A DNA stretch of 64,000 nucleotides from Pristiophorus japonicus (taxonomy: Eukaryota), in the NCBI RefSeq assembly GCF_044704955.1, contig NC_091998.1, forward strand, positions 12,338,001 through 12,402,000, in the 5' to 3' direction. The notes beneath the pieces were generated by a model. It had not been told where the DNA came from. It did not search any database and saw only the letters and a program-made list of their open reading frames with translations. Made by a program: the position numbers and the translations under genes. Each line of letters begins with the position of its first letter. Positions within the stretch are counted from its first letter, which is position 1. This document shows positions 6,211 through 51,306 of the stretch, in pieces.

Positions 6211-9036
6211 CAGGCTCTGTGTGCTTCAGTGTGAAATTCTCATCCTCAAACTTGGTCCCGTAGATGGACTTTCCACCCGTGCCATTGTGCTGTGTGAAGT
6301 CACCGCCCTGTACAATGGAAAGTTGAGCAGGTCATTGACCATTTACTGAAACAGGCACAGAGATATTCCCAAATATTCGCAAAATAAAGTTGCTCCTCAC
6401 CTGACACATGAAGTCAGGAATGATTCTGTGGAATGTGGAGCTCTTGTAACCAAAACCCTTCTCCCCGGTGCACAATGCACGGAAGTTTTCTGCAACAAAG
6501 CCATTCAGAGTAAGACCACCGATCTAAAAGACAGACTTTCTTCAACTCAACAGTTCGTTTATGGGACTTACCTGCAGTCTTTGGGACCACATCAGCCCTG
6601 AGCTGAAAGAGACAACAGTGCACAGCTTCAGTATATCGACCATGTACAATAATAAAACACTACAGATTCATATCATAGCCGTAATTACTGTTCAAACATT
6701 ATATTGAGAAGACTTGTAAAAGCTACATATCACGTACACATGAACAAGTTTTATACAGAGCAACGGTAACAATTGTAGCAACACTGCTGCTGCAATTATT
6801 TTACCACATAGCTGATCAATAAGCATTTAACAGTGATTCTTAAACGTGTGTGGGGAAATTCCTGTAATTCACAACATACTCCTGGGGTCCCTTACAAATG
6901 AGGGGAACTCTCATTTCACAAAGACAATGTCAGCGAGTCAATGGAAACCAGTGGCATCACTGCAGGACTTACTGGAAATCAAATTATTTTTTAAAGCTGT
7001 TAACACATTAGGGAAAGAGGGAGAAAAGTGCAAAGAAGCCAAAACACCTGCAATGGCTCTTGTTGCTACCTCATGAGTAGCAACCCAACTTCAGTGTGCC
7101 AGTGCAGCCTTCGGTCAAGGACCATAAACTCAGCACCAAGCTCATGGTCTACAGAGCAGTAGTGATACCCACCCTGCTACATGATAGAGACATGTTCTAT
7201 CTACTGCAAGCACCTCAAAGCACTGGGGAAAGTACGACCAACGCTGCCTCTGCAAGATCCTGCCAATGTTCTCGCTCAGGCCAACATCCCCAGCATCGAA
7301 GCATTGACCACGCTCGATTAGCTCCGATGGACGGGCCACATTGACCGCATGCCCGACACTAGACTCCCGAAACAAACGCTCTACTCAGAGCTCCGACACG
7401 GCAATCGAGGCCCAGGTGGGTAGAGGAAATGCTTCAAGAACACCCTCAAAGCCTCATTGAAAAAGTGCAATGACCCCCAACCGACATCTGGGAATCGCTG
7501 GCTCAAGGCCGCTCAAAGTAGAGAACCATCTGGGAAGACACCCAACACCGAGTCACAGAAACATAGAAAATAGGTGCAGGAGTAGGCCATTCAGCCCATC
7601 GAGCCTGCACCACCATTCAATGAGTTCATGGCTGAACATGCAACTTCAGTACCCCATTCTTGTTTTCTCGCCATACCCCTTGATCCCCCTAGTAGTAAGG
7701 ACTACATCTATAACTCCTCTTTGAATATATTTAGTGAATTGGCCTCAACAACTTTCTGTGGTAGAGAATTCCACAGGTTCACCACTCTCTGGGTGAAGAA
7801 GTTTCTCATCTCGGTCCTAAATGGCTTACCCCTTATCCTTAGCCTGTGACCCCTGGTTCTGGACTTCCAACATTGGGAACATTCTTCGTGCATCTAACCT
7901 GTCTGAAGCAGTCAGAATTTTAAACGTTTCGATGAGATCCCCTCTCATTCTACTGAACTCCAGTGAATACAAGCCCAGTTGATCCAGTCTTTCTTGATAT
8001 GTCAGTCCCGCCATCCTGGGAATCAGTCTGGTGAACCTTCGCTGCACTCCCTCAATAGCAAAAATGTCCTTCCTCAAGTTAGGAGACCAAAACTGTACAC
8101 AATACTCCAGGGTGTGGCCTCACCAAGGCCCTGTACAACTGTAGCAACACCTCCCTGCCCCTGTACTCAAATACCCTCGCTATGAAGGCTAACATGCCAT
8201 TTCCTTTCTTAACCGCCTGCTGTACCTGCATGCCAACCTTCAATGACTGATGTACCATGACACCCAGGTCTCTTTGCACCTCCCCTTTTCCTAATCTGTC
8301 ACCATTCAGATAATAGTCTGTCTCTCTGTTTTTACCACCAAAGTGGATAACCTCACATTTATCCACATTATACTTCATCTGTCATGCATTTGCCCACTCA
8401 CCTAACCTATCCAAGTCGCTCTGCAGCCTCATAGCATCCTCCTCGCAGCTCACACTGCCACCCGCAAATTTGGATACTACATTTAATCCCCTCGTCCAAA
8501 TCAGTAATGTACAGTGTAAACAGCTGTTCGTTGGGAGCAAGCGGAAGCCAAGCTCTAACAGCGGAAGGAGTGCACGACAACCCAAGCACCCCATCACCTG
8601 TGACAGACTGCAGGTCCCGCATCAGACACCTGAGAACTCATTAACATGGAAACAAGTCACCCTCGACTCCGAGGGACTGCCCAAGAATAGAATATAGCCA
8701 CACATGTACACAGGACTCCAAAGTGTGGTCTAGTATTGCACGCTTACGGTTAGTTTTTAAACCCAGTTTTGCAGCGACTGCACACATTCCAGAGGAGCCA
8801 CACCTTGCTGCTCTTGGCCCGCGCAGGCGCACTGGTCCGGGGGGAACAGCTCCCCCAGCGGCCGGTCTGTCTCGGCTCAGCCTAGGACCGCGCAGGCGCA
8901 CTGGTCCCGGGAACAGCTCCCCCAGCGGCCGGCGGCCCGCGCGCGGCAAGGCTTTCCTCACCGCCATCACGATCCGGCCCAGTCTTTTGCCGTTGATATC
9001 GATGTCCATGAAGACCCGGGGATTGTTGCCGGCCAT
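6211..9036 (-). CDS. Cyclophilin-type peptidyl-prolyl cis-trans isomerase, copy 1 (partial: exons 1-4; exons 5-6 expected left of the window)
   Basis: Exons complement(8962-9036, 6572-6602, 6401-6489, 6211-6307) = 75/31/89/97 nt, with canonical GT/AG splice sites. Translation [97 protein letters not shown]. Strong Kozak context (gcaccATGG). Intron 4 matches copy 2 down to ~4942, then is interrupted by RTE/CR1 to the window edge. PPIA- vs PPIF-orthology is unresolved. Confidence 0.93.
7090..8690 (+). mobile_element. 5'-truncated RTE in copy 1 intron 1 (orthologous to the one in copy 2), containing a minus-strand CR1 at ~7557-8527
   Basis: RTE C-terminal peptides; 5' junction identical to that at ~32210. 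Nested CR1 3' fragment. Confidence 0.85.
8820..8932. repeat. Same 67-bp unit (~1.7 copies) in copy 1 intron 1
   Basis: Matches the 33943-34256 unit. Confidence 0.85.
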
Positions 9037-9139
9037 GGTGCGGGAGGGTTTGCCGAGTTGTCGAGCTCAGTGTGTGTGAGAGACCGTGAGGTAAACTGGC
9101 GCGGAGAGCTGCTCGCAGGCGGAAGGGAAGGGCGGGGCT

Positions 9140-9460
9140 CGGCGGCGCCTTAAGTAGCGTTTCCTGTCAATCACGCGTTGGGCGGGGCTGCGCTCCTCAT
9201 TGGCTGGCAATCACAGAGGGCGGGGCCACGCTCCCCATTGGCTGTGAATCAGAGGGGTGGGCGAAGCAGCGCTTCCCATTGACTGTCAATCAAACGGAGG
9301 GCGGGGCCGCTCTCCCCATTGGTTGCCAATCAGAGGGGGCGGGGCCACATCCCCATTGACTGTCGGACGGCAGGACCACACTCCCCATTGGCTGCCAAGC
9401 ACACGGAGGGCGGGGCCGCTCTCCCCATTGGCTGTCAGTCGCGGAGGGCGGGGCTATAAT
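9140..9460 (-). promoter_or_regulatory. Copy 1 promoter: TATA-like CTTAAG plus ~8 diverged ~40-bp modules (GC box + TGAYTGACAG + CCAAT)
   Basis: CpG-rich. Repeated gggcgggg...ccccattggctgtcaatca units start ~9164, 9204, 9242, 9283, 9323, 9360, 9392 and 9432; cttaag at 9149-9154. Confidence 0.75.
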
Positions 9461-9593
9461 CTCGCACAATGTCTCTGTTCCTGTCTCAGAGTCCCATGTG
9501 GCGACTGGTTCTCGCCAAACCTTATAAAAATAAACACTTGCATTTATATAGCGCCTTTCATGACCACCAGATGTCTCAAAGTGCTTTATCCAT

Positions 9594-10530: not shown

Positions 10531-10625
10531 ACCACCTGCCTCATTGTGGATCCCCTGATCCCAACTGGCTGGGGTTTTATTGAGTCTTGTGAACATCACG
10601 TGACTGGCTAAGCCACTCACAACTC

Positions 10626-10946
10626 TTTTGGGGGGTGAACAAAATAAACATTAAATCAAGTGCCCCCCGATCTGGGGGACACTCCAAACACTTTTCACGT
10701 GCACTTTTTTTTTTTGTTTGTTTTTATGGTGATTTTTGTGGGGTTTTTTGGGCACTAAAATCATGATTTTTTCCAAGTACCCCCTATAAAAGGGGAGGGG
10801 CACACTAAAACCAGCATTTAAAATAAATTAGACTTTAAAACAAATAAAATCAAATTAAAATTTGGTTGCCGGGGGTGATGATGCACTCCAGTCCCTCCGG
10901 TGCCCACCTCTCGCGAAAGGCCGCGAGCGTACCGGTGGACACCGCG
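10626..10946 (-). mobile_element. Tx1-clade (L1 group) non-LTR retrotransposon, short 3' fragment
   Basis: ORF2 end AVSTGTLAAFRERWAPEGLECIITPGNQILI* plus 3'UTR; flanked by a 19-bp direct repeat. Confidence 0.85.
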
Positions 10947-10965
10947 GCTAAGCCACTCACAACTC

Positions 10966-12416
10966 TTTTAGAGGAGACAAATAAACAGTAGGTCAAGTGA
11001 CCCCCGATCTGGGGGACACTCCAAACATTTTTCAACTGCCCTTTTTTTAAAACTTTTTTTGGGGGGGTTTTTGTGATTTTTTGGGGCAATAAAATCATAA
11101 ATTTTACAAGTGCCCCCTATAAAAGGGGAGGGGGACATTAAAAACCCCGGCAATTAAAACAAATTAAACTTTAAACCAGATCAAATCAAATTAAAATTTG
11201 GTTGCCGGGCGTGATGATGCACTCCAGTCCCTCCGGCGCCCACCTCTCGCGGAAGGCCGCGAGCGTACCGGTGGACACCGCGTGCTCCATCTCTAGGGAC
11301 ACCCTGGCCCGGATATAGGCCCGGAAGAGAGGCAGGCAGTCAGGCTGAACGACCCCCTCGACCGCCCGCTGCCTGGACCGGCTGATGGCACCCTTGGCCG
11401 TGCCCAGGAGCAGTCCTACGAGGAGGCCCTCGGACCTACCCGCTCCCCTCCGCACAGGGTGCCTAAAGATCAGGAGTGTGGGACTGAAGTGCAACCAGAA
11501 TTTCAGGAGCAGCCCCTTTAAATATTGGAACAGGGGCTGCAACCTCACACATTCAGTAAAAACATGGAACACGGACTCCTCCAGACCGCAGAAATTGCAG
11601 GCGGCTTGGGAGCACATGAACCGGCTTAAAAATTAGTTGCACAGGACTGCTCCGTGCACCACCCTCCAGGCCAAGTCCCCGATAAATAATGGGAGGACTC
11701 CCGCGTAATGTGCACTCCATCGGGGACCCCCGCCTCCTCCGGACGGCACTATGGTACGCCATGGCGTGTCCGGAAGGCAGACGAGGATGGCAAGGTTGAG
11801 AGTGTGCAGGAGCAGCCCGTACAGGAAACCCCTCCGCGCAGAACTGAAAGGCACGGAGGGGATTTCCCCGAGGCGGCTCAAGTTGTGAAGCGCCGGCTCC
11901 CAAGGGAGGTTCTGGGGTTTGGCGCTGATGAGGAATTCCGTCCGGACGGGGGTCAGTTCGGTCGGGATCTCCCCACGTGCTTGAGCCTCCTCGACGCACC
12001 TAATGGAGTCGGGGCCCAGTGCTGTTTTTAGCGACTCGATGGCATCGGCCGAGCGGCGGACGTCGGCCGAATTTAGGCGCCGCGCCAGCATGTCTGCCGC
12101 CATCCAGCCCGCTCCTCCGCCATCGAGCAGGTCCCTGACCCTGGTCACCTCACCAGCCACAGCCCTCTCGTCCGACTGCCACCTAAAACCTCGGAAGTGG
12201 AGGTACGGATTCCTGAGCAGCGGCTCCTGCAGGACAGCCGCCACTCCAGCCGGTGGAGAGCTGCGCTTGGTGGAGACTTTGTTCCAGACCCTGGTGAGTT
12301 CCTTGTAAAAGACAGGCAGCTCCTGGACGGCGGTCCTGACGCCCCCCAAGCTCACAAACAGGAGCTGCGTGTCGTAGTTGAGGTCGTGCTGCTGGCGGAA
12401 GAAATGCGTCGCCAGC
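10966..12416 (-). mobile_element. Tx1-clade non-LTR retrotransposon, 5'-truncated
   Basis: ORF2 C-terminus with LPVFYKEL..VW, DLAWRVVHGA and zf-RVT CCHC motif CNFCGLEESVFHVFTEC; one premature stop; 19-bp TSDs. Confidence 0.88.
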
Positions 12417-12435
12417 GCTAAGCCACTCGCAACTC

Positions 12436-13898
12436 TTTTAGGGAGTACAAAACAAACATTAGATCAAGTGCCCCCCAATCTGGGGGACACTCCAGACACT
12501 TATACCTGCCCTCTTTTTTTTTTGTTATTTTTGACTGTTTTTTGGGGGTTTTTTGTGATTTTTTTTTTGGGCAATAAAATCATAAATTTTACAAGTGCCC
12601 CCGATAAAAGGGGAGGGGGACACTAAAAACCCCGGCAATTAAAACAAATTAAACTTTAAAACATAAAATCAAATTAAAATTTGGTTGCCAGTCGTGATGA
12701 TGCACTCCAGTCCCTCCGGCGCCCATCTCTCGCGGAAGGCCACGAGCGTACCGGTGGACACCGCGTGCTCCATCTCTAGGGACACCCTGGCCCGGATGTA
12801 GGCTCGGAAGAGAGGCAGGCAGTCAGTCTGAACGACCCTCTCGACCATCCGCTGCCTGGACCGGCTGATGGCACCCTTGGCCGTGCCCAGGAGCAGTCTA
12901 CGAGGAGGCCCTCGGACCTACTCGCTCCCCTCCGCACAGGGTGCCCAAAGATCAGGAGTGTGGGACTGAAGTGCAACCAGAATTTCAGGAACAGCCCCTT
13001 TAAATATTGGAACAGGGGCTGCAACCTCGCACACTCCATAAAAACATGGAACATGGACTCCTCCAGACCGCAGAAATTGCAGGCGGCCTGGGAGCCCGTG
13101 AACCGACTTAAAAATGTATTGCACGGGACTGCTCCGTGCACCACCCTCCAGGCCAAGTCCCCGATGAATAGTGGGAGAACTCCCGCGTAGAGTGCCCTCC
13201 ATCGGGGACTCCCGCCTCCTCCGGACGGCAAGATGGTACACCATGGCGTGTCCGGACGGCAGGCGAGGATGGCAAAGTTGAGAGTGTGCAGAAGCAGCCC
13301 GTACAGGAAACCCCTCCGCGCAGAACTGAAAGGCATGGAGGGGATTTCCCCGAGGCGGCTCAAGTTGTGAGGCGCCGGCTCCCGAGGGAGGTTCCGGGGT
13401 TTGGCGCCGATAGGAATTCCGTCCGGGCGGGGGTCAGTTCGGTCGGGATCGCCCCACATGCTTGAGCCTCCTCGATGCACCTAACTGAGTCAGGGCCCAG
13501 TGCTGTTTTTAGCGACTCGATAGCGTCGGCCGCGCGCCTGACGTCGGCCGAATTTAGGCGCCGCGCCAGCGTGTCTGGCGCCATCCAGCCCGCTCCTCCG
13601 CCATCGAGCAGGTCCCTGACCCTGGTCACCTCACCAGCCACAGCCCTCTCGTCCGACTGCCACCTAAAACCTCGGTCGTGGAGGTACGGATTTCCGAGCA
13701 GCAGCTTCTGCAGGACAGCCGCCACTCCAGCCGGTGGAGAGCTGCGCTTGGTGGAGACTTTGTTCCAGACCCTGGTGAGTTCCTTGTAAAAGACAGGCAG
13801 CTCCTGGACGGCGGTCCTGACGCCCCCCTAAGCTCACAAACAGGAGCTGCGTGTCGTAGTTGAGGCCGTGCTGCTGGCGGAAGAAATACGTCGCCAGC
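12436..13898 (-). mobile_element. Tx1-clade non-LTR retrotransposon, 5'-truncated
   Basis: Same family and same 5' end as 10966-12416; frameshifted; 19-bp TSDs. Confidence 0.88.
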
Positions 13899-14017
13899 GC
13901 TAAGCCACTCACAACTCAATAGCTCTACAAACAGGTGCATACATTACAGCTTCCAGTAGCAGTATACAGAAGCAGGCTTTTCCGAGAGGAACATTTGTCA
14001 TTAATAACACGCACCTC

Positions 14018-14135: not shown

Positions 14136-14704
14136 CTTGCCTCTCTCATCTGTCGCTCTGTACCTGTGTGATCTGGCAGCCCCCAGTCTGCTTGTTTTTC
14201 TGAGGTTCAAATGTTTTATTTATTTTCTTAAAGCAGCGTTCAGAACTGAAAAACGCTGCAGAGAATCAGTCTTCAATATTACTGTTTGTGCACCCAGGTT
14301 AGCAACTCGTGCTGCTCAGCATTCCGATTGTTTGTAATCTGGACAAGTTAAATTGAAGGTAGCGATATTTCAGTCTCAGCTTAATATAAACTAAGAAAAG
14401 ATTTAACTTGAATCATAGAATTTATAGCACGGAAGCTAGCTGTTCGTCCCAACTAGTCTTAGCCAGCGTATATGCTCCACACCAGCCTCCTCCCACCTCT
14501 CTTCATCTCATCCTATTAATATATCCTTCTATTCCTTTCTCCCTCGTGTGCTTATCCAGCTTCCTCTTAAATGCATCTATGCTAGTCACCTCAACCACTC
14601 CCTGTGGTAGTGAGTACCACATTCTCACCATCCTCTGGGTAAAAAGGTTTATCCTGAATTCCCTATTTACTTGGTAGTGATAATCTTATATTTGTGGACC
14701 CTAG

Positions 14705-15428
14705 GAGGACAGGCGCACCAACATCAGTGTCCTTGTCCAGGCTAACATCTCCAGTATTGAAGCACTGACCACATTCGATCAGCTTCGCTGGGCAGGCCAC
14801 ATAGTTCGTATTGTGTTCCTAACACAGATGAGACTGCACACAGGGAGGTTAAAGTAACAGTGACCTCAGTCTTTATTTTGACACTCCAGAGTGAGGAACG
14901 GGCCTTAGGGGCCGGCTTATATACAGTGCTCCCAAGGGATGCTGGGATCCCTTGAGACTTCAGAGGATGCGCTCCCTGGTGGCAGAACATGGGAGTGCAT
15001 GCTTTACAGATACACCACAGTTCGCATGCCACCCGAAGCAAATGCTCTATGCGGAGCTCCTTAATGGTAAACGAGCCAAAGGTGGACAGCGGAAATGTTA
15101 CAAGGACACCCTGAAAGCCTCCATGGTAAAGTGCGACATCACCACTGATGCCTGGGAGACCCTGGCCGAAGACTGCCCGAGGTGGGGAAAATGCATCCGG
15201 GAGGGCGCTGAGCTCCTCGAGTCTCATCGCAAAGAGCGTGAAGAGGTCAAGCGTAGACAGTGGAAGGAGCACGCGGCAAACCAGCCCCACCCACTCCTTC
15301 CATCGACAAATGTCTATCCCACCTGTAACAGGGTCTGTGGCTCTCATATCGGACTGTTCAGCCACCAAAGAACTCACTTTGGGAGTGGAAGCAAGTCTTC
15401 CTCAATGCCGAGGGACTGCCTATAATGA
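14705..15428 (+). mobile_element. RTE 3' fragment inserted in an old CR1 tail (14410-15590)
   Basis: RTE peptides; 12-bp TSD tgtggaccctag at 14693-14704 and 15429-15440. Confidence 0.85.
14809..15019 (-). mobile_element. Solo LTR (Gypsy-type), 211 bp
   Basis: 5-bp TSD gttcg (14804-14808 and 15020-15024). Minus strand starts TG and has TATATAA and AATAAA. Interrupts the RTE exactly. Confidence 0.85.
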
Positions 15429-16131
15429 TGTGGACCCTAGTTTTGGACTCACCCACAAGTGGAAATACTCTCTCTACACCTACCCTCTCAAACGTTTCAT
15501 AATCATAAAGACCTCTATTAAGTCACCCCTCAGTCTCTTTTCCAGAGCAAAAGATTCCTTGTCTGTTCAGTCTCTCCTGATACTAACAGATCGCCAATGG
15601 CATTGCTTACAATAGGGCACTGGATTTGCTGTTAAATAAGGACAGAAACATTATAAGATATAACTCACAACGTGTTATTCTGTTGCTAAAATGCAGCTGT
15701 GTGTGACTGGGGGTGATTTTAACCCTACTCAACAATAGAATTTAGGCAGGTGGATAATTAAAATGCCCCAGATTCCCATCAGGGGATTCTTACTTCATAG
15801 AATCATAGAATGGTTACAGCACAGGAGGTCACCATTCGGCCCGTCAAGCCCGTGCCGGCTCTCTGCAAGAGCACTTAAACTAATCCCACTCCTCCCACCC
15901 CTTTCCCATAGCCCTGCAAAACTTTTTCCTTCAGGTACTTATCCAATTCCCTTTTGAAAGCCACAATTTAATGCATCTCCACCACCCTTTCAGGCAGTGC
16001 ATTCCAGATCCTAACCGCTCGCTGCGTATAAAAGCTATTCCTCGTGTCTTCTTTGGTTCTTCTGCCAATTACCTTAAATCTGACTCCTCTGGTTCTCGAC
16101 CCTTCTACCAATGGGAACAGTTTCTCTCTAT

Positions 16132-16540
16132 ATGTGGCTCAGTGCATTGCACACTCGCTTCTGAGACATGAAGGTTGTGAGTTCAAGTCCCATTCTAGAG
16201 ACTTGAGCACAAAAATCTAGGCTGACACTCCAGCGCTGCACTGTCGGAGGAGCCATCTTTTGGATGAGACATTAAACCGAGGCCCCGTCTGCCCTCTCAA
16301 GTGAACGTAAAAGATCCCATGTCGCTATTTCAAAGAAGAGCAGGGGAGTTATCTCCAGTGTCCTGGCCAAGATTTATCCTTCAATCAACATCGCTAAAAA
16401 GATTATCTGGCCATTGTCACATTGGTGTCTGTGGGAGCTTGCTGTGTGCAAATTGGCTGCCGTGGTTCCCACGTTACAAAGCACTTTGAGACGTCAGGTG
16501 GTTGTGAAAGGCGCTATATAAATGCAAGTCTGTCTGTGAG
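16132..16540 (+). mobile_element. tRNA-derived Deu-domain SINE (SacSINE1-like)
   Basis: A box gtggctcagtg, B box gttcaagtccc, central Deu-like domain, L2-like tail aggcgctatataaatgcaagt (tail tandemly duplicated to ~16590). Confidence 0.7.
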
Positions 16541-16589
16541 ACATCTGGTGGTTGTGAAAGTCGCTATTGAAATGCAAGTCTTTCTTTCT

Positions 16590-19500: not shown

Positions 19501-20700
19501 AGTCTCTACATGTCTGCCATTGCCCATCCACAGTCAACCCCTTAAGTATCATTCGCCAATCTATCCTAGCCAATTCACGCCTCATACCTTCAAAGTTACC
19601 CTTCTTTAAGTTCTGGACCATGGTCTCTGAATTAACTGTTTCATTCTCCATCCTAATGCAGAATTCCACCATATTATGGTCACTCTTCCCCAAGGGGCCT
19701 CACACAACGAGATTGCTAATTAATCCTCTCTCATTACACAACACCCAGTCTAAGATGGCCTCCCCCCTCGTTGGTTCCTCGACATATTGGTCTAGAAAGC
19801 CATCCCTTATGCACTCCAGGAAATCCTCCTCCACCGTATTGCTTCCAGTTTGGTTAGCCCAATCTATGTGCATATTAAAGTCACCCATTATAACTGCTGC
19901 ACCTTTATTGCATGCACCCCTAATTTCCTGTTTGATGCCCTCCCCAACATCACTACTACTGTTTGGAGGTCTGTACACAACTCCCACTAACGTTTTTTGC
20001 CCTTTGGTGTTCTGCAGCTCTACCCATATAGATTCCACATCATCCAAGCTAATGTCCTTCCTAACTATTGCATTAATCTCCTCCTTAACCAGCAATGCTA
20101 CCCCACCTCCTTTTCCTTTTATTCTATCCTTCCTGAATGTTGAATACCCCTGGATGTTGAGTTCCCAGCCCTGATCATCCTGGAGCCATGTCTCTGTAAT
20201 CCCAATCGCATCATATTTGTTAACATCTATTTGCACAGTTAATTCATCCACTTTATTACGGATACTCCTTGCATTAAGACACAAAGCATCCCTGCCTAAC
20301 CCCATCCTAATGGGCATCTAACGTCGCGTTAGAGGTTCTAATCCTGGAACCCCCTCCCCAACAGCACTGCGGGAGCATCTTCACCACACGGACTGCAGCG
20401 GTTCAAGAAGGCGGCTCACCACCACCTTCTCACGGGCAATTAGAGATGAGCAATAAATGCTGGCCTAGCCCAAATCACAGACTCAATAACAAAAATATGT
20501 TGCATTAGTGCGTCTAATGTTGTAGTCCTACTGTTAGTTTCGAACCCAGTTTTGCAGCTGCTCCACACATTCCAGAGGCTGTTGCACTGATGGCCAGTTG
20601 CGAGGAACAGCTTCCTCCAGCGACCGGGGCCCGCCCCAACTCACCCGCCCGCCGCCTCTGCCTTGCGCAGGCGCACTTGTCCCGGGAACAGTTCCCACCT
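16590..20700 (-). pseudogene. Exon-less relic of a cyclophilin gene unit (intron 1 homolog), split by a CR1
   Basis: 16590-17420 is colinear with intron 1 of copy 3 (49210-49820) and copies 1/2; 20286-20335 and 20525-20700 match the rest of intron 1. No exon 1 or exon 2 sequence found. Confidence 0.7.
17424..20286 (-). mobile_element. Young CR1 LINE (ORF2 APE + RT, few disruptions)
   Basis: ORFs 19700-20317, 19244-19693, 18854-19144 and 17514-18749; CR1 tail. Confidence 0.95.
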
Positions 20701-20716
20701 GAATTTCACAAGTGCT

Positions 20717-38124: not shown

Positions 38125-41100
38125 GCCGATCATGGCTGATTTGATCCGATCCTCAACTCTACTTCCCCACCCGCTCTCCATAACCCTTAACTCCCTTATC
38201 GTTTAAAAATCTGTCTATCTCCGCCTTAAATGCATTCAATAACCCAGCCTCTATAACTCTGAGGTTGAGAATTCCAAAGATTCACGACCCTCTGAGAGAA
38301 GAAATTTCTCCTCATTTTCATTTTGAATGGGCGATCCCTTATTCTTAAACTATGCCCCCTAGTTCCCTATTCCCCCTCTCTGCATCTACCCTGTCAAGCC
38401 CCCTCAGAATCTTATACATTTCAATAAGATCACCTCTCAGTCTGCTAAACCCCAATGAGTATAGGCCCAACCTGCTCAATCTTCATATGACAACCCCTTC
38501 ATCTCAGGAATCAACCTCGTGAACCTTCTCTGAACTGCCTCCAATGTAAGTATATCTTTCCTTAAATAAGAAAACCAAAACTGTATGCAGTACTCCAGAT
38601 GTGGTTTTACCAATGCCTTGTACAGTTGTAGCAGGACTTTCTTACTTTTATACTCAATCCCCTTTACAATAAAGACCAACATTCCATTTGCGTTCCTAAT
38701 TACTTGCTGTACCTGCATGCTAACTTTTTGTGTTTCATGTACAAGGACCCCCAGGTCTATCTGTACCACAGCATTTTGTAATCTCTCCCTATTTAAATAA
38801 TAATTTACTTTTTTATTTTTCCTACCAAAATGGATAACCTCACATTTTCCCACATTATACTCCATCTGCCAAATTTTTGTCAAGTCATTTAGCCTGTCTA
38901 TATTCCTTTGCAGATTCTTTGCTTTCCTCCTCAAAATTTGCTTTTCCACCTATCAGCAGCAAACTTGGCTACATTACACTCGGTGCCTTCATCCAAGTCA
39001 TTAATATAAATTGGTAATAGTTGAGGCCCCAGCACTGATTCCTGTGGCACCCCACTAGTTAGTTTGCCAACCTGAAAATGACCCCGACTCTTTGCTTTCT
39101 GTTAGTTAGCCAATCCTCTATCCACTTTAATATATTACCTCCAACCCCGAGAGCTCTTATCTTGTGCAGTAACCTTCTCTGTGGCTCGTTATCGAATGCT
39201 TTCTGGAAATCCAAATACACATCTACTGGTTCCCCTTCATCTATCCTGCTTACTACATCCACAAAAAGAATTTCAGTAAGTTTGTCAAACATTATTTCTC
39301 TTTCATAAACTCTGCTCGACTGCATTTTGATTTTCTGCTTCCTTAATGATGGACTCCAATATTTTCCCAATGACAGATGTTAGGCTAACTAGTATATAGT
39401 TTTCTGCTTTCTGTCTCCCTCCTTTCTTAAATACGGGCGTTACATTTGCGGTTTTCCAGTCCACTGGAACCTCTTCAGAATCCAGGGAATTCTGGTAGCT
39501 TATAACCAATGCATACACTATTCCTGCAACCACCTTTTTAAGAACCTAGGATGCAGGCCATCAGGTCCAGGGAACTTGTCCACCCTTAATCCCATTAGTT
39601 TGCCTCGTACTTTTTCTCCAGTGAAAGAGATTATTTTAAGTCCACCCTCCCCCCGCCCCTTAATTATTGATTATTGGGATGCTTTTAGTGTCTTCTACTG
39701 TGAAGACGATACAAAATATTTGCTCAAAGTCTCTGCCATTTCCCTGTTTCCCATTATTAATTCCCCAGGCTCATCCCCTAAGGGACCAATGTTTACTTTA
39801 GCTACTTGCTTCTTTTTTATATACCTGTAGAAGCTCTGACTGTTTTTTATATTTCTTATAATTTTCTCTCATAAGCTATTTTCTCTCCCTTTATAAATTT
39901 ATTTTAGTTGTCCTTTGCTGATTTCTAAAAATTTCCCAATCCACTGGTCTTTAGCTACTCTTCGCAACATTGTATGCCTTTGTTTTCAATTTGATACCAT
40001 CCTTTACTTCCTCAGTTAGCCACCGTTGGTTCATCCTTCTCTTAGATTCTTTCATTCTCACTGGAATATCTCTTTGCTGAGAAGTTATGAAATATTTTCC
40101 TAAATGTTTGCCACTGTTTTTCTACACTCTTACTCTTTAATATATTTTCCTAGCTTTCTCATCCTCAAACTGAATTTCAAATTCTAACATGCTATGATCA
40201 CTCTTCCCAAAAGGATATTTCACTATGAGATCATTAATTAATCCAGACTTGTTACACATTACCAGATTTAAAATAATCTGTTTCCTGGTTAGTTCCACAC
40301 AATTTGTTCCAAGAAATCATCCCGCATACACTCTATGAACTCTTCCTCAAGGCTACCTTTGCCAATTTGATTTGTCCACAATCAATATGAAGATTAAAAT
40401 CGCCCATAGAAACATAGAAAATAGGTGCATGAGTAGGCCATTCAGCCCTTCTAGCCTGCACCGCCATTCAATGAGTTCATGGCTGAACATGCAACTTCAG
40501 TACCCCATTCCTGCTTTCTCACCATGCCCCTTGATCCCCCGAGTAGTAAGGACTTCATCTAACTCCCTTTTGAATATATTTAGTGAATTGGCCTCAACTA
40601 CTTTCTGTGGTAGAGAATTCCACAGGTTCACCACTCTCTGGGTGAAGAAGTTTCTCCTCATCTCGGTCCTAAATGGCTTACCCCTTATCCTTAGACTGTG
40701 ACCCCTGGTTCTGGACTTCCCCAACATTGGGAACATTCTTCCTGCATCTAACCTGTCTAAACCCGTCAGAATTTTAAACGTTTCTATGAGGTCCCCTTTC
40801 ATTCTTCTGAACTTCAGTGAATACAAGCCCAGTTGATCCAGTCTTTCTTGATAGGTCAGTCCCACCATCCCGGGAATCAGTCTGTTGAATCTTCGCTGCA
40901 CTCCCTCAATAGCAAGAATGTCCTTCCTCAAGTTAGGAGACCAAAACTGTACATAATACTCCAGGTGTGGCCTCACCAAGGCCCTGTACAACTGTAGTAA
41001 CACCTCCCTGCCCCTGTACTCAAATCCCCTCGCTATGAAGGCCAAAATGCCATTTGCTTTCTTAACCGCCTGCTGTACCTGCATGCCAACCTTCAATGAC

Positions 41101-42372
41101 TGATGTACCATGACACCCAGGTCTCTTTGCACCTCCCCTTTTCCTAATCTGTCACCATTCAGATAATAGTCTGTCTCTCTGTTTTTACCCCCAAAGTGGA
41201 TAACCTCACATTTATCCACATTATACTTCATCTGCCACGCATTTGCCCACTCACCTAACCTATCCAAGTCACTCTGCAGCCTCATAGCATCCTCCTCGCA
41301 GCTCACACTGCCACCCAACTTAGTGTCATCCGCAAATTTGGAGATACTACATTTAATCCCCTCGTCTAAATCATTAATGTACAATGTAAACAGCTGGGGC
41401 CCCAGCACAGAACCTTGCGGTACCCCACTAGTCACTGCCTGCCATTCTGAAATGTATCCATTTACTCCTACTCTTTGCTTCCTGTCTGACAACCAGTTCT
41501 CAATCCACGTCAGCACACTACCCCCAATCCCATGTGCTTTAACTTTGCACATTAATCTCTTGTGTGGGACCTTGTCTGAAGTCTTCTGAAATTCCAAATA
41601 TACCACATCAACTGGTTCTCCCTTGTCCACTTTACTGGAAACATCCTCAAAAAATTCCAGAAGGTTTGTCAAGCATGATTTCCCTTTCACAAATCCATGC
41701 TGACTTGGACCTATCATGTCACCATTTTCCAAATGCACTGCTATGACATCCTTAATAATTGATTCCATCATTTTACCCACTACTGAGGTCAGGCTGACCG
41801 GTCTATAATTCCCTGTTTTCTCTCTCCCTCCCTTTTTTAAAAAGTGGGGTTACATTGGCTACCCTCCACTCGATAGGAACTGATCCAGAGTAATGGAATG
41901 TTGGAAAATGACTGTCAATGCATCCGCTATTTCCAAGGCCACCTCCTTAAGTACTCTGGGATGCAGTCCATCAGGCCCTGGGGATTTATCGGCCTTCAAT
42001 CCCATCAATTTCCCCAACACAATTTCCCGACTAATAAAGATTTCCCTCAGTTCCTCCTCCTTACTCGACCCTCTGACCCCTTTTATATCCGGAAGGTTGT
42101 TGGTGTCCTCCTTAGTGAATACCGAACCAAAGTACTTGTTCAATTGGTCTGCCATTTCTTTGTTCCCCGTTATGACTTCCCCTGATTCTGACTGCAGGGG
42201 ACCTACGTTTGTCTTTATTAACCTTTTTCTCTTTACATACCTATAGAAACTTTTGCAATCCGCCTTAATGTTCCCTGCAAGCTTCTTCTCGTACTCCATT
42301 TTCCCTGCCCTAATCAAACTCTTTGTCATATCTTTATTATTGCCATATCTTTCTTACAAGCCTCTATTATGA
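38125..42372 (-). mobile_element. Older CR1 LINE, interrupted by a young CR1
   Basis: Decayed RT/APE peptides at 38476-39533; the APE segment resumes after 42325 (IEACKKDMAII). Confidence 0.85.
40405..42325 (-). mobile_element. Young CR1 LINE, 5'-truncated
   Basis: ORFs 41859-42329 and 40497-41780. Confidence 0.95.
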
Positions 42373-43113: not shown

Positions 43114-43143
43114 TAAATTGTATAATTTCACTTGCAAAAATAA

Positions 43144-46100
43144 TTAGGGGAGCTGTCCACAATCGGCGATGGTAACTTTTTTGCCGGGCGTGCCACTTTC
43201 ACTGCCGCATTTTTCCATCTTCTTTACAACTTCTTTGTACCCCTCCGTCACAGTTCCAAATACAACATGCTTTCCATCCAACCTGCAAGATTCAATAACA
43301 GATATGAATGACCACAGAATCGTGCTGTGAATACGTAGAGAGAGAATACTAAATCACCACTGACTTACCACGGAGTATCGCTAGTGCACAAAAAAAACTG
43401 GGATCCATTCGTATTTTTACCAGCATTGGCCATGGACAGGATACCTGCAACAGTAAGATGACTAAATGTAAACATTCCATAAATGTTTTTACAGGAGGTG
43501 TTTAGCTTCTCTCCTGTAGAACTTGCACTTAGATGGTGCCTTCGAGGTAATACAATGTTAAAATGCATTTCTGGGCCTGAGAGAAAGAACAGGGTGAGAC
43601 ACTGAGCACAAGTTGGTGGAAAAAGATTTGAGTGACGGTCAGCGAGGTAGGTTTGCAGGCAATTTTGAAAGTGGGTAGAAATACAACAGGGAGAAGGATT
43701 TTGAAATCAGTAAATCCAAGCAACAAAGTCCTCCACAGCCCCCTTATATTCTTCTCCCTTATTGCTAGCATAAAGGCTCAGGTTTGCTATAGGAAAAGAT
43801 TGGGGGTAAAATTCCAGTTAAAGGCTTCCTTCGGACGAACGCCTCCAACCCGAGAATTTTTTGCGAAAGTACCTGGTGGTCCCGGAGGCCTTCTCTTCCC
43901 GCGCATCAGAGAGCATCCACGTCTTGGAAGTTCGGACGCAGAAGCTGGAGCTGGAGAAGCTGGAGTCACGTGGGCCTAGACAACCACAGTACAGTATTCT
44001 CACTGATAAAATGGGAACTCCGTAACTCCGAGTTCCCACTACTATCAATGAGAAGGACCCTCTAATACATCCAAACACAACATAATAAATTTTTAAAAAA
44101 ATTAAAGTTAATTAAATGTTTTAGAAAAATAAATTTGCGGGTGAAGGGGGAATGTTTTTTTTAAATGTGTTTTAGTCGGGTTTTAAATTAACTTACCTTA
44201 GTGGACAGGACCTCCACTTTAAAAATGTGATTAAATTTTATTTTTGTGTGTTTTTTAAAACTCTTACACTGGTAAAAGTAGGCTATGCACCTGCTTTTAC
44301 CAGGCGTAAAAGTTTTAAGGACATTCGCTGGGCAAGAAATGGCCAAATAGCCCAATCTCGCCTGCGCGCATGTCCTTTTCCCGGGGATGCGGAAGATCTG
44401 TCAAGCGAAACTTAGACAGATGGGAAAAGCCGCTTTTCGGTGTATGGACATGCGCGCCGAAAACCAGCTTTTGTGAGACCTCACCGGTTCCGTACACACT
44501 CCCTATGGACATGGCGAGACCGGGATGTTACAGCCACTAAGTTTAACAATTGCTTTTATTTGCTAATCATAAATCAGGTTGATGAATATTTTCACTGTAT
44601 TACCATACCAGCACTTACAGAAGAACATAAGAACATAAGAATTAGGAACAGGAGGAGGCCATCTAGTCCCTCGAGCCTGCTCCGCCATTCAACAAGATCA
44701 TGGCTGATCTGGCCGTGAACTCAGCTCCACTTACCCGTCCGCTCCCCATAACCCTTAATTCCCTTATTGATTAAAAATCTATCTATCTGTGACTTGAATA
44801 CATTCAATGAGCTAGCCTCAACTGCTTCCTTGGGCAGAGAATTCCACAGATTCACAACCCTCTGGGAGAAGAAATTCCTTCTCAACTCGGTTTTAAATTG
44901 GCTCCCCTGTATTTTGAGGCTGTGCCCCCTAGTTTTAGTCTCCCCGACCAGTGGAAACAACCTCTCTGCCTGGATCTTGTCTATCCCTTTCATTATTTTA
45001 AATGTTTCTGTAAGATCACCCCTCATCCTTCTGAACTCCAACGAGTAAAGACCCAGTCTGCTCAATCTATCATCATAAGGTAACCCCCTCATCTCCGGAA
45101 TCAGCCTAGTGAATCGTCTCTGTACCCCCTCCAAAGCTAGTATATCCTTCCTTAAGTAAGGGGACCAAAACTTCTCATGTAGACACCCACTAAATTCATA
45201 ACTAATCCCCAATACGGGTACAACTTCGAGAATCTGGAGTTCCGGAATCCGTACTGTTCTGGAATCAGGACACCGGAATGATCTGTGGTGGGGGTTGTCC
45301 AGAATCCGAAAAATGTTCCAGAATCCGGACTCCCACCTCGGGCCACTGCGGACCTCACCCAGACCTCAAGCTGCCGCAGACCTGCTCCCGCCTCGGGCCA
45401 ACCTCCCCTCCCCTATCTACCTACCTACCTACCTAGGCCCAGGCGTTTCCGGATTTGGGACATCGGAAAGACGTTCCGAAGTCCGGAAATACACAAACCT
45501 GGGCTTGGGCGTTTCCGGCTTTGGGACGTCATAATGACGTTCCGAAGTCCGGAAATACACAGAATCCGGAGCAGCCTCGGACCCGAGGCTTCCGCATTCT
45601 CGACATTGTACTCACAGGCAAGTCTGAGGTCTACAGCACTGTTGTGACGTTTAGCCAAGATGGAGTTGTGTTTAAAAACGACAAACCGTTTAAGGCCATG
45701 ACTCAGGTACTTGTTAACAGTCAGAATATCACAGAATCATAGAATGGTTACAGCACAGAAGGAGGCCATTCGGCCCGTCGAACCCGTGCCAGCTCTCTGC
45801 AAGAGCACTTCAGCCAGTCCCACTCCCCCACCCTTTCCCCGTAGCCCTGCAAATCTTTTTCCTTCAGGTATTTATCCAACTCCCTTTTGAAAGCCATGAT
45901 TGAGTCTGCCTCCACCACCCTTTCAGGCCGCACATTCCAGAGTCTAACCACTCAAGGCATAAAAAAAAATTTTCTTATGTCGTTTTGGTTCTTTTGCCAA
46001 TCACCTTACATCCAGATATAAAAGGGGTCAGAGGGTCTAGTAAGGAGGAGGAACTGAGGGAAATCTTTATTAGTCGGGAAATTGTGTTGGGGAAATTGAT

Positions 46101-49100
46101 GGGATTGAAGGCCAATAAATCCCCAGGGCCTGATGAACTGCATCCCAGAGTACTTAAGGAGGTGGCCTTGGAAATAGCAGATGCATTGACAGTCATTTTC
46201 CAACATTCCATTGACTCTGGATCAGTTCCTATCGAGTGGAGGGTAGCCAATGTAACCCCACTTTTTAAAAAAGGAGGGAGAGAGAAAACAGGAAATTATA
46301 GACCGGTCAGCCTGACATCGGTAGTGGGTAAAATGATGGAATCAATTATTAAGCATATCATAGAATGCATTTGGAAAGAGGTGACATGATAGGTCCAAGT
46401 CAGCATGGATTTGTGAAAGGGAAATCATGCTTGACAAATCTTCTATAATTTTTTGAGGATGTTTCCAGTAGAGTGGACAAGGGAGAACCAGATGATGTGG
46501 TATATTTGGACTTTCAGAAGGCTTTCGACAAGTTCCCAGACAAGAGATTAATGTGCAAAGTTAAAGCACATGGGATTGGGGGTAGTGTGCTGACATGGAT
46601 TGAGAACTGGTTGTCAGACAGGAAGCAAAGAGTAGGAGTAAATGGGGACTTTTCAGAATGGCAAGCGGTGACTAGTGGGGTACCGCAAGGTTCTGTGCTG
46701 GGGCCCCAGCTGTTTACACTGTACATTAATGATTTAGACGAGGGGATTAAATGTATCTCCAGATTTGCGGATGACACTAAGTTAGGTGGCAGTGTGAGCT
46801 GCGAGGAGGATGCTATGAGGCTGCAGAGCGACTTGGATAGGTTAGGTGAGTGGGCAAATGCATGGCAGATGAAGTATAATGTGGATAAATGTGAGGTTAT
46901 CCACTTTGGTCGTAAAAACAGAGAGACAGACTATTATCTGAATGGTGACAGATTAGGAAACGGGGAGGTGCAACGAGACCTGGGAATCATGGTACATCAG
47001 TCGTTGAAGGTTGGCATGCAGGTACAGCAGGCGGTTAAGAAAGCAAATGGCATGTTGGCCTTCATAGCGAGGGGATTTGAGTACAGGGGCAGGAAGGTGT
47101 TGCTACAGTTGTACAGGGCCTTGGTGAGGCCACACCTGGAGTATTGTGTACAGTTTTGGTCTCCTAACTTGAGGAAAGACATTCTTGCTATTGAGGGAGT
47201 GCAGCGAAGGTTCACCAGACTGATTCCCGGATTGGTGGGACTGATCTATCAAGAAAGACTGGATCAACTGGGCTTGTATTCACTGGAGTTCAGAAGAATG
47301 AGAGGGGACCTCATAGAAACGTTTAAAATTCTGACGGGTTTAGACAGGTTAGATGCAGGAAGAATGTTCCCAATGTTGGGGAAGTCCAGAACCAGGGGTC
47401 ACAGTCTAAGGATAAGGGGTAAGCTATTTAGGACCGAGACGAGGAGAAACCTCTTCACCCAGAGAGTGGTGAACCTGTGGAATTCTCTACCACAGAAAGT
47501 TGTTGAGGCCAATTCACTAAATATATTCAAAAGAGAGTTAGATGAAGTCCTTACTATTAGGGGGATCAAGGGGTATGACGAGAAAGCAGGAATGGGGTAC
47601 TGAAGTTGCATGTTCAGCCATGAACTCATTGAATGGCGGTGCAGGCTAGAAGGGCCGAATGGCCTACTCCTGCACCTATTTTCTATGTTTCTATGTATCC
47701 TCTCATTCTCGACTCCTCTGCCAATGTGAACAGTTTTGCTGCCCAGACCCCAAGTTATGAAGTCACAATTGCCATTTCTGTAGATTGTCTGGCTCACACC
47801 CCTGGGGAGAGGCCAGGTAATGACAGCGATGAATGCCAGCAGAAAGCAGCTCTTTCTCCCGCCCCCACCCCATTTTTTAATAAAAGAGTACAGTTGAAGC
47901 GTGGTACCTCAAGTATGATCAATGCAGCTCATCCAAGACTTGTGCAAACCTGAAAGGTCCCAAGACATGGATATATTGGTCAGCTACACCTTAAAGCAAC
48001 ATTAGCCCAGTTAAGACTGGTCATATTTTCAGAAATTGTAATGAACAGATGGTGCCGTTCAAAAATATAGCGAATGTAGTCAGGACTCAAAATTGAAAGT
48101 AACAATTTGATTAGCAGAATTATTCATACAGAAATAAACAGTTGCCTATATATGGCACCTTGTCAGAAATGTCTCAAAAGCTATGACTTTTGCTTCAATA
48201 TAATTTATTTGGGATTCTCCACAAGATGCAAATTTTATTTAAAAAAAAGTAATGTACATTTAATATACATGAACAGTGAGTGGTGTGAGAATTGCAAACG
48301 GTTCTGCTCGTGATTGTCACATTAAATGACTAATTAAGGACCTGCAACATTTGTAACATTGTGTGACAGACCCAAACTGCACCTTCAGTAATCCCCAGGT
48401 ACTCTTTCTCGACAAGACACACAATTGCAGTCACCCAGGAGTCCGCCCACAATGAGCATCACTGAGCCGATTGAACCTCTTCTGGTTTCCCCCCCACCCC
48501 GTCCCTCCCCGACCCCTTCCTTCACCCCAACGATCTCAACTCCCTCCCACCTCCTCCATTCCTCCCACCCCCCGCCCCTGAAAATTAATGCAAATATGGC
48601 CGCACGGATTTACCTTTGCATTTGTGTGTCAGTTTGAAGTTCTCATCCTCAAACTTCTCACCGTAGATGGACTTTCCACCTGTGCCATTGTGATTTGTGA
48701 AGTCACCACCCTGTACAATTGAAAGTGGAACATGTCATTAGTCGCTTACAAGCACAGAGACATTCCAACTATTCGCAAAATAAAGTTGCTCCTCACCTGG
48801 CACATGAAGCCAGGAATGATTCTGTGGAATGTGGAGCCATTGTATCCAAAACCCTTCTCACCGGTGCACAATGCACGAAAGTTTTCTGCAACAAAGCCAT
48901 TCAGAGTAAGACCAGACATCGATACAACTGAGACTTTCTTCAGCTCAACAGTCAGTTCCTGGGACTTACCTGCAGTCTTTGGGACCACATCAGCCCTGAG
49001 CTGAAAGAGACAACAGTGCACAGCTTCAGTATATCGACCATGTACAATAATAAAACACTACAGATTTACAGCCGTAATCACGGTTCAAACATTATATTGA

Positions 49101-51306
49101 GAAGATTTGTAAAAGCTAATCACAATCACATATGAACAAGTTTTATACAGACCAACGGTAACAACGGTAACTGCTGCTGGACTTGGATGCAATTATTTTA
49201 CCATTTACCTGATCATTAAGCATCTAACAGTGATTCTTAAACTTGTGTGGGGAAATTCCTGTAATTCCCAACATACTCCCGGGGTCCCTTACTAATATTG
49301 TCTGGGGAACCCTCATTTCACAAAGACAATGCCAGCGAGTCAATGGAAACCAGTGGTATCATTGCAGGAATTACTGGGATTTTTTGTAGTTGTAAACACA
49401 TTGGGGAAAGAGGGAGAAAAGAGCGAAAAGGAGAAGCCCAAACTTACGGCTACCCTCTGCCCCCCGTCTTGGCACCGGCCCAAAGTCCTATCATGGAACT
49501 TGTTACCTCATGAGTAGCAACCCCAACTGCCCCATCAGACGCTCTCACCAATCATTGATTCCTGGTCCCTATGCCAGCTGACATTATAAGTGGTTCCTTC
49601 TCTTCAGGTTCTGTTCGTGGAAAGTTAAAGTGTTAAAAATCTGAGTCCCAACCGGAACCTGCCCACTTCCGATTTTAATGGAGGTAGAACGGGGCGCACA
49701 GCCAACCTGCTCCCAGGAGACGGGTCGCCCATTTAAATTTAATGAGGCTGGAAGCCTCTGATTTAACTTCAGCTGGTCGGGTTTTGCAGGCCTCGTGAAA
49801 TTTTACACTTACCTCCTGGATCCAGCATCCGTGCCTAACTCCACCCCCCACTAATGTTGCGTTAGTGAGTTTATTTACATAGGATATACGGCACGGAAAT
49901 AGTACATTCAGCCCGTCCAGTCCATGCTGGCGTTTATGTTCCACTCGAGCCTCCCGTCTTTCCTCATCTAAATCTATCAGCATAACCCTCTACTCGCTTC
50001 CCGCTCATGTACTTATCTAGCCTCCGCTAAAATGCATTTATACTTCAACCACTCCCTGTGGTAGCGAGTTCTACATTCTCACCACTCTGGGTAAAGAAGC
50101 TTCTTCCGAATTCCCCATTGAATTTCTTGGCGACTAACTTATATTGATGGTCTCTATTTATGCTCTTCCCCATAAGTGGAAACATACTCTCTGTATCCAC
50201 TTTATCAAAACTTTTCATCATTTTTAAGACCTCTATTAGGTCGCCCCTCAGCCTTCTCTTTTAAAGCAAAAAGAGACCCAGCCTGTTCACCCTTTCCTGA
50301 CAGGTATAACCTTCCATTTCTGGTATCATCCTTGTAAATCTTCTCTACACCCACTCCAGTGCCTCTATATCATTCGTAGAATATGACGACAATGTCTGTA
50401 CACAGTACTCCAAGCATGGTCCGACTCGTGTTGCATTCCTACTGTTAGTTTTGAACCCAGTTTTGCAGCGGCTCCACACATTCCAGATGCTCCACACCCA
50501 GTGGCTGTTGCTCTGCACAGGCCTGCACCTGAGCCCCGCCCCGCACCCCTCCCAGCGACGCGTGATCTCGGGAACTGCTCCCCCAGCGGCCGGCCCGCGG
50601 AGAGGTATTAGGCGGTCCCTCGTGTCGTGGATGACCCACTTCCACACCAAAAAGGGATGAGTTCACCGGTGTTTCAATGGGGGAACCTGACATTCCGAGC
50701 TCCGAACTACATATTGAAGGGATGAGTTCACCGGTGTTTCAATGGGGGAACCTGACATTCCGAGCTCCGAACTACATATTGAAGGGCGGAAGATGCCTGT
50801 GTGTGGATTTTTTAACGTGGGATGGCTGTTGCACACCAGCCACCACACGGGCTTGACAGAGCTAGGTCTTGGTCCAGTGGCAAGGGTTAACCAGGACAAC
50901 TGGAGACCAGGCTGTGCTGCATGGACCTGGAGCACACACATACTCCGACTATCCATAGATCTCAGAATGGGCTGGCCCGTGCTGCTAGTCTAAAAGGCTT
51001 GTGATTAAATCCAATTGGCAACAGCAGCAATATCATCATCTTCCTCTGAAAAAAAAGATCAATACTCATCAGTGGCTGTTGGAACCAGTCAAACTACTCC
51101 AATCCCAGGCCACTGAAATAGGAGACAAACGGTATCACCATGCAGCAAAATAGGACCTTTAGAGAGTAATTTCTTAGTAAATTGGACATTGCGAGCACTA
51201 TCATTCACTGACTCCTGGAAGCGCAACTCACCGTCATCACGATCCGGCCCAGACTTTTGCCGTCTATATCGATGTCCATGAAAACCCGGGGATTGTTAGC
51301 AGCCAT
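43144..51306 (-). CDS. Cyclophilin-type peptidyl-prolyl cis-trans isomerase, copy 3 (complete, 168 aa)
   Basis: Exons complement(51232-51306, 48970-49000, 48797-48885, 48614-48710, 43369-43444, 43144-43282) = 75/31/89/97/76/139 nt, GT-AG, open frame. [168 protein letters not shown]. Confidence 0.96.
43801..44537. mobile_element. Non-autonomous DNA transposon (Harbinger-like MITE) in copy 3 intron 4
   Basis: Imperfect TIRs ggggtaaaattcc / gggatgttacagcc; absent at the homologous site in copies 1 and 2. Confidence 0.6.
44622..45172 (-). mobile_element. CR1 3' fragment (different subfamily, ttcttatg tail)
   Basis: ORF 44721-45212 RT C-terminus. Confidence 0.9.
45221..45608. mobile_element. Tc1/mariner-pogo-type MITE
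   Basis: TA at both ends (45219-20 and 45609-10), TIRs caacttcgagaatc / cattctcgacattg, internal tccgga repeats; empty site in copy 2. Confidence 0.7.
46010..47695 (+). mobile_element. Young CR1 LINE in copy 3 intron 4
   Basis: ORFs 45985-46389 and 46473-47603; tail. Confidence 0.94.
50610..50990 (-). mobile_element. Short RTE-related element (RTE 5' region) containing an exact 65-bp tandem duplication (50652-50786)
   Basis: Reverse-complement similarity to the RTE 5' region at ~51990-52140. Confidence 0.6.

Follow-up and report, generated by a model that had tools for sequence, protein, structure and literature searches.

The cyclophilin array on C22

The DNA studied here, referred to as the window, is a stretch of 64,000 nt from the sawshark Pristiophorus japonicus (C22:12338001-12402000 of a 5.9-Gb assembly, C22 being contig NC_091998.1) that carries a cluster of genes for cyclophilins, the family of mitochondrial cyclophilin D (CypD, gene PPIF) and cyclophilin A (CypA, gene PPIA). 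Window coordinates outside 1-64000 are C22 positions minus 12338000. Genes were located by a six-frame motif scan and a self-comparison of the window, and exact exon limits were then set. The analysis revealed three intact minus-strand genes of six exons, named A, B and C, whose coding exons measure 75/31/89/97/76/139 nt in every case, as the original prediction of at least three same-orientation paralogs with this layout had it. All 15 introns obey the GT-AG rule, and each copy has an open frame of 168 amino acids (aa).

51306-43144, minus strand: copy A; exons 51306-51232, 49000-48970, 48885-48797, 48710-48614, 43444-43369, 43282-43144; 168 aa, spliced product identical to P0001
34359-27661, minus strand: copy B; exons 34359-34285, 31712-31682, 31595-31507, 29814-29718, 27958-27883, 27799-27661; 168 aa, spliced product identical to P0014
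9036-6211, minus strand: copy C, exons 1-4 (9036-8962, 6602-6572, 6489-6401, 6307-6211); intact 168-aa gene, P0012
1-6210, minus strand: in-window portion of copy C intron 4
C22:12336579-12336280, minus strand: copy C, exons 5-6, just left of the window; C spans 9036 to -1720

The spliced translations are letter for letter the same as UniRef proteins of P. japonicus, which databases already list under the name 'peptidyl-prolyl cis-trans isomerase-like'. Against the cyclophilin domain PF00160 they score 158.7-162.9 bits, compared to a cut-off of 21.7. None of the three has the mitochondrial presequence of the PPIF/CypD class: the nearest in-frame stop lies 30 nt (A, TGA), 108 nt (B) or 33 nt (C, TGA) upstream of the ATG, the last being the stop already noticed in one copy, and no interval between stop and start contains an ATG. 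A YAG splice acceptor (Y, pyrimidine) is likewise absent between in-frame stop and ATG in A and C.

Past the window's right edge, at a distance of 9-13 kb, lies a fourth gene, D, which encodes a longer protein. A-C start exactly at the position equivalent to D's internal Met. The D extension has five Arg/Lys and one acidic residue, an amphipathic start and a peak hydrophobic moment of 0.74; similar extensions occur in Pristis and Hypanus, in two ray proteins that also keep the internal Met. Judged by composition, it is likely a mitochondrial presequence, and D is likely the true PPIF of the shark. On the left of the window, where it had been proposed to count further paralogs, we found exons 5-6 of C and then a pseudogene, E; further members, D and F, lie to the right. 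A genome-wide protein search gave at least five exon sets at the array, and a DNA search with exons 5-6 of A yielded five C22 copies plus two places in the rest of the genome. There were no further cyclophilin copies in the 224 kb examined around the array.

C22:12411012-12415485 (window 77485-73012), minus strand: D, putative parent gene; 199 aa, exons 171/31/89/97/76/136 nt, 32-residue extension, internal Met at 12415389
about C22:12331362-12326827, minus strand: pseudogene E, left of C; frameshift and early stop in exon 1, exon 2 without its donor site, exons 5-6 with deletions
about C22:12425399-12425493: F, an orphan, frameshifted copy of D exon 1 between D and the upstream ZMIZ gene
60442-64000: spacer on the side towards D

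The start of D exon 6 (C22:12411147-12411130) reads WLDDRH instead of the usual cyclophilin WLDGKH, with Arg at the position of a SIRT3-regulated lysine, K166 of mouse CypD, which PMC3034180 describes as deacetylated by SIRT3. Arg at this position also occurs in 14 of 155 proteins compared, and Asp-Asp-Arg in none.

Probable descent from PPIF and the likely PPIA orthologue

We compared A-C with D and with a second cyclophilin gene of the same contig, 45 Mb from the array.

C22:57900298-57910837: likely PPIA orthologue; 164 aa (P0128), exons 69/31/89/97/76/133 nt

The short introns, exon flanks and 3' untranslated region (UTR) of D can be aligned with those of A, B and C (78-88%). The 57.9-Mb gene, which has a TATA box, in-frame stops upstream and no presequence, aligns to A-C at its exons and at intron stretches (64-71%) resembling shared repeats. 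In all 18 exon-by-exon comparisons, A-C show more identity with D than with the 57.9-Mb gene. Exon 1 of A-C measures 75 nt, the same as D counted from its internal Met, compared to 69 nt at 57.9 Mb, and it matches D at 49-50/75 sites vs 41-42/69 for the 57.9-Mb gene; for exon 6 the corresponding values are 98-100/136 and 75-79/133. Among solved structures, the best matches in the Protein Data Bank (PDB) are PPIF chains (E 6e-81), ahead of PPIA (4e-79).

A, B, C and an intronless retrocopy on C19 all carry the predicted insertion of one residue in exon 6. The insertion is a real difference from the solved mammalian CypD chains and is also absent from the other 15 elasmobranch proteins of the group, including D, and from the ZMIZ-linked 57.9-Mb gene; of the other 51 aligned proteins, one, among 25 teleost proteins, has an extra residue at this site. 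A predicted structure (mean predicted local distance difference test score 71, two segments below 50) has a cyclophilin-like order of strands and helices and would place the insertion at the start of helix 138-146 (helix 2).

Looking at the flanking genes, as had been advised, places the array between a ZMIZ gene and a likely ZCCHC24. The ZMIZ gene lies upstream, with its zf-MIZ domain at 12.448 Mb and its N-terminal domain at 12.57-12.61 Mb; PF17180 has a single match in the genome, at 12.04 Mb, 285 kb downstream of the array, and an RPS24-family exon lies at 13.96 Mb. According to a preprint, the two genes near human PPIF are ZMIZ1 and ZCCHC24 (bioRxiv 10.64898/2026.10.08.756856). The position of the array thus matches the order of the PPIF locus, with the ZMIZ family on one side and the sole PF17180 match on the other. 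Within the 90 kb left of E there was no convincing motif match to a ZCCHC24 exon. We take PF17180 to be the mark of ZCCHC24, the array-side ZMIZ gene to be ZMIZ1 and RPS24 to be a ZMIZ1 neighbour; the labels ZMIZ1 and ZMIZ2 are assumptions based on neighbour genes.

The P0128 cyclophilin comes after a second ZMIZ gene, located at 57.67-57.81 Mb. The same contig holds genes of the PurA family (59.27 Mb) and the OGDH family (65.3 Mb) and a Nudc_N gene (43.4 Mb). In cattle, PURB, H2AFV, PPIA, ZMIZ2, OGDH and NUDCD3 lie in one block, according to PMC7464420. Because its neighbours match this block, the 57.9-Mb gene is likely the PPIA orthologue. Some observations weaken the match: the OGDH-family gene is 7 Mb off and another lies at 14.2 Mb near the array, the 50 kb downstream hold no convincing H2A.Z motif, and the PDB scores of P0128 do not split PPIA from PPIF. 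A-C do not occupy the ZMIZ2-PPIA-PURB position; the likely block, C22:57.7-59.3 Mb, has a cyclophilin of its own. They also lack the five-exon layout with a fused 173-nt exon ascribed to human PPIA, which is not diagnostic, since the likely shark PPIA has six exons too. As this gene shares the six-exon layout (69/31/89/97/76/133 nt), the split of the 97- and 76-nt exons is probably ancestral and no PPIF marker, and the label 'PPIF-type', which the original prediction gave it, does not hold in this genome. C22 carries the two ZMIZ-cyclophilin pairs as well as the two OGDH-family genes (12.0-14.2 Mb and 43-65 Mb), and their presence on one chromosome suggests two paralogous segments joined by fusion.

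Protein trees were built from 55 proteins and from a 31-row subset. Rows were hand-chosen, comprising 53 of 153 stored proteins plus D and an outgroup from the genome; they cover named animals and two fungi, with unnamed metagenomic, fused and some redundant entries left out. Because mammalian, teleost-PPIF, lamprey and amphioxus sequences are not among the rows, the tree only supplements what DNA and synteny show. A single clade with D takes in all 19 elasmobranch proteins of the group, whether long or short (support 95/89 with 55 proteins, 96/95 in the subset), A-C cluster with the retrocopy (89/97 and 99/93), and P0128 falls outside the elasmobranch clade on a long branch in both trees. A single clade of all short shark copies was neither recovered nor rejected by the approximately unbiased (AU) test (p 0.182), and the AU rejection of a 'long-copy' clade is uninformative because two Hemiscyllium models share exons 2-6. 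On the whole, A-C are cyclophilins and, by descent, probably PPIF paralogues, not CypD by presequence and not PPIA by orthology.

Upstream regions, the C19 retrocopy and sequence exchange

The retrocopy on C19 has lost all five introns, carries an A-run 14 nt past AATAAA and is bounded by a 12-bp target-site duplication. Its leader of 106 nt is colinear with the DNA that immediately precedes exon 1. The leader begins 91 nt ahead of the ATG when compared with C and 83 nt ahead of it when compared with B, in both cases 27 nt past a TATA-like CTTAAG, which stands 118 nt before the ATG in C and 110 nt in B, downstream of promoter-like arrays. The retrocopy thus shows that an mRNA of this subfamily was once made in the germline, correctly spliced and without a presequence exon; the copy is silent on present expression of A-C.

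C19:75044826-75045332: retrocopy (L013); 168 aa, intact frame, annotated protein P0002
34479-34811, minus strand: promoter-like array of B; 38-bp unit repeated 8.4 times, carrying TGAYTGACAG, CCAAT and GC-box motifs
9164-9454, minus strand: promoter-like array of C; unit length 40 bp, motifs as in the array of B
59981-60441, minus strand: orphan duplicate of the sequence upstream of A (51393-51842, alike at 81%), not followed by an exon 1

The retrocopy has changes at conserved sites, and its leader holds an upstream ATG with an in-frame stop; it is probably a young processed pseudogene. Three further loci, C18:48357229-48357405 (L014), C7:202769317-202769481 (L026) and C10:17764732-17765386 (L041), are likely processed fragments, one from the 3' end of D (92%) and two from the 57.9-Mb gene (98% and 78-80%), which suggests that both genes were transcribed in the germline. 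Tandem units like those of the B and C arrays, 38-41 bp long and bearing the same motifs, recur at a third site, window 59993-60084. The decamer TGAYTGACAG, which resembles the PBX-PREP promoter motif, has 14 sites in the window, all confined to 9164-9454, 34479-34811 and 59993-60084, and is also found upstream of D and of the 57.9-Mb gene.

At position -3 of the ATG, A, B and C have a purine and D has T. Remnants of presequence DNA were sought in the 5' UTRs: of 1000 shuffles, 858 (A), 33 (B) and 735 (C) reached the score with D, so that decay of the presequence in place is not supported.

Similarity among D, A, B and C is patchy. Their 48 informative sites fall into eight runs, a number so low that none of 100000 shuffles reached it; intron 2 groups D with C (2/82 differences) and A with B (3/84), and intron 5 together with the first 60 nt of the 3' UTR is identical between B and C. 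This patchiness indicates gene conversion or unequal exchange. Pairwise dN/dS (nonsynonymous to synonymous divergence) is 0.36-0.59 over 10 pairs, none exceeding 1, and is below 1 at p<0.05 in five of six pairs tested (A-B p 0.005, A-C p 0.008), with dS among intact copies of up to 0.34. The active-site residues named in PMC2911226 (R55, F60, M61, Q63, A101, F113, W121, L122, H126) are invariant, 9/9, in D, A, B, C and the retrocopy, and of the gatekeeper residues named there 2/7 vary, compared to 56/168 positions among five sawshark proteins. These sequence features fit working enzymes under moderate constraint and give no sign of targeted diversification.

Several repeats accompany the genes. 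Stretches at about 14400-17350 of the window (e.g. 16589-17347), between C and B, are similar to intron 1 of A and B, contain no exon matches and are possibly the relic of another partial duplication. A 67-bp GC-rich tandem repeat occupies the start of B intron 1 (33942-34255), with a related stretch in C (about 8690-8930). Upstream of C, 10606-13917 is a local duplication with a 336-bp tandem and a 1.5-kb repeat at 92%. A repeat resembling long interspersed nuclear elements recurs in many copies, 80-96% alike, in the introns of A-C and between genes (e.g. 17233-20267, 23158-26065, 40405-42329, 46011-47696).

Origin of the short copies and its meaning

We consider it quite probable that the array arose by tandem expansion of PPIF, in which D keeps a predicted presequence and A-C, starting at the internal Met, are likely active cytosolic prolyl isomerases. 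The original prediction had offered a PPIF-derived, probably cytosolic subfamily with lost presequence as one of two alternatives, and the adjoining D, the shared non-coding DNA and the presequence-less retrocopy favour it. The cytosolic location, read from the absence of a leader, and present-day expression of A-C are inferred. In the proposed sequence of events, D would make matrix CypD, as its leader suggests, and perhaps also a short form from the internal Met. Unequal crossing-over would have copied the D gene in tandem, and the copies' first ATG and presequence would have disappeared or given way to a new promoter and 5' UTR, leaving A-C with an ATG that may now stand in a stronger start context than D's internal Met. 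Gene conversion or unequal exchange would keep patches of the array homogenised. The result would be a division by compartment, with mitochondrial CypD from D and an extra cytosolic CypA-like isomerase from A-C, beside a more diverged ZMIZ2-linked PPIA.

Several points weigh against this origin. In the last 200 nt of intron 1, 65-68 of about 190 sites differ from D, so that sharing is mostly unclear, and 5' UTR similarity to D is marginal in one of three copies, with no clear sharing. Conversion with D may inflate the likeness of A-C to D. In the AU test, a grouping of A-C with P0128 is not rejected by the protein tree (p 0.082), nor does the best tree unite A-C with D (p 0.143). Human ZCCHC24 is, as we presume, on the opposite strand, and the shark PF17180 match is on the strand of the cluster. 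B has a single YAG 87 nt before its ATG, with 50% pyrimidines only. The retrocopy is 91.7% identical to B, 90.8% to C and 88.2% to A; matching no living copy exactly, it records a past germline mRNA, and since retrocopies can be 5'-truncated, its leader may be incomplete. A dN/dS near 0.5 is high for a cyclophilin and fits relaxed selection.

The most serious rival, though an unlikely one, holds that A-C are redundant, decaying PPIF duplicates without a cytosolic job, kept open by recent origin and conversion. The array does hold pseudogene E, the orphan exon 1 F and an orphan promoter, dN/dS is about 0.5, and conversion with D is evident in intron 2 of C (2/82). Three open frames with 15/15 canonical introns at dS up to 0.34, invariant active sites and dN<dS in A-B and A-C nevertheless argue for maintenance, as do presequence-less relatives that persist in other sharks. 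We hold it to be less probable still that A-C diversify under pathogen pressure, altering their substrate-binding surface as the cyclophilin domains of TRIMCyp have done. Of the 22 positions varying among Mustelus copies, 18 vary in the sawshark set too, in which a third of all positions (56/168) differ; yet 18 of these 22 sites have more than two states in 25 teleost proteins, gatekeepers are not enriched among variable positions (2/7), and no pair has dN/dS >1. Very improbable, in our judgement, is a cassette locus in which read-through would splice D's presequence exon onto exons 2-6 of A, B or C, adding mitochondrial isoforms: first exons all end in phase 0, exon 2 is identical in D, A, B and C (31/31 nt), and Hemiscyllium isoform models differ only in exon 1, with or without presequence, but D ends in a stop and polyA signal of its own, 24 kb ahead of A exon 2, B and C have their own promoter-like arrays, every copy has its own exon 1, and the retrocopy carries the short one. 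The remaining alternative, in the original prediction a PPIA-like subfamily with an ancestral intron and here taken as PPIA-derived genes that moved beside PPIF and were then homogenised, is left with hardly any credit: the likely PPIA orthologue has the six-exon layout without presequence and the AU test spares the grouping, whereas the least-converted exons 1 and 6 are still closer to D, exon 1 length and 3' UTR follow D, and the copies stand head-to-tail behind it, so that DNA and synteny disfavour it.

Tandem expansion of PPIF may extend beyond the sawshark. Mustelus asterias has four 167-aa relatives (XP_078055628, 630, 632, 633) that group by species in the trees and, given their near-consecutive accessions, may be arranged in tandem, each of them being assigned to a contig of one and the same length; Scyliorhinus has two short proteins, and in Hemiscyllium two models annotated as isoforms differ only in the part encoded by exon 1, one with and one without extension. 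Some short shark entries may be annotations begun at the internal Met. The predicted lineage specificity holds for the insertion and for these copies, and perhaps not for the arrangement, in view of Mustelus. We regard it as a tentative, rather doubtful extension that sharks and rays re-made cytosolic CypA-like isomerases from the CypD locus more than once by internal-Met tandem copying (in sawshark, Mustelus, perhaps catsharks and carpet sharks), and that such copies do much of the cytosolic work while true PPIA, on its long branch, drifted; the parent CypD also has Arg at the conserved SIRT3-regulated lysine.

Compared to PPIF, A-C are alike in best structure match (PDB 3r49, 2bit, 2z6w), catalytic residues and ZMIZ-linked locus, and differ in lacking a presequence and in the extra residue that the model puts at the start of helix 2. 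Human PPIF is single-copy, whereas the shark has three intact tandem copies plus relics. The extension of D is similar in size to the human targeting sequence, given as 29 aa in PMC12865271. With CypA, A-C share a single domain of about 18 kDa and the lack of a targeting peptide, and likely compartment and reaction, but they are not orthologous to it, the likely PPIA orthologue lying apart at C22:57.90 Mb. Mammalian PPIA expansions are mostly retrocopies, whereas A-C keep their introns. The human PPIA gene is at 7p13 (PMC11552246 and PMC9169364). In fungal CypA genes (Neurospora CypA, Botrytis BCP1), mitochondrial and cytosolic forms come from one gene, as stated in PMC3688495; there too one domain serves two compartments with or without a leader, and D keeps the internal Met, but in the shark the two forms are divided among tandem genes and are not isoforms of one gene. 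Compartment-split paralogues, e.g. Dictyostelium TRNT1 and human TOP1/TOP1MT, are a described strategy (PMC12718117). They share with the array a duplication followed by differing mitochondrial targeting signals, and the shark case differs in that the signal would have been lost from a targeted parent, in several copies, with a separate cytosolic paralogue already there.

No publication on such a shark cyclophilin cluster was found in the open literature, subscription journals being mostly outside its reach. The array is genuine, though only a modest example of how genes are known to evolve by duplication, leader loss and gene conversion; the mechanism is well known, and a specialist would find it tidy, not startling. 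If the proposed origin is true, it would be a clean vertebrate case of a mitochondrial gene yielding cytosolic paralogues through loss of a targeting peptide, with a natural complementary DNA as record. Short shark 'PPIA-like' entries and the six-exon layout would then be no indicator of orthology, which bears on annotation and on studies of the mitochondrial permeability transition in sharks.

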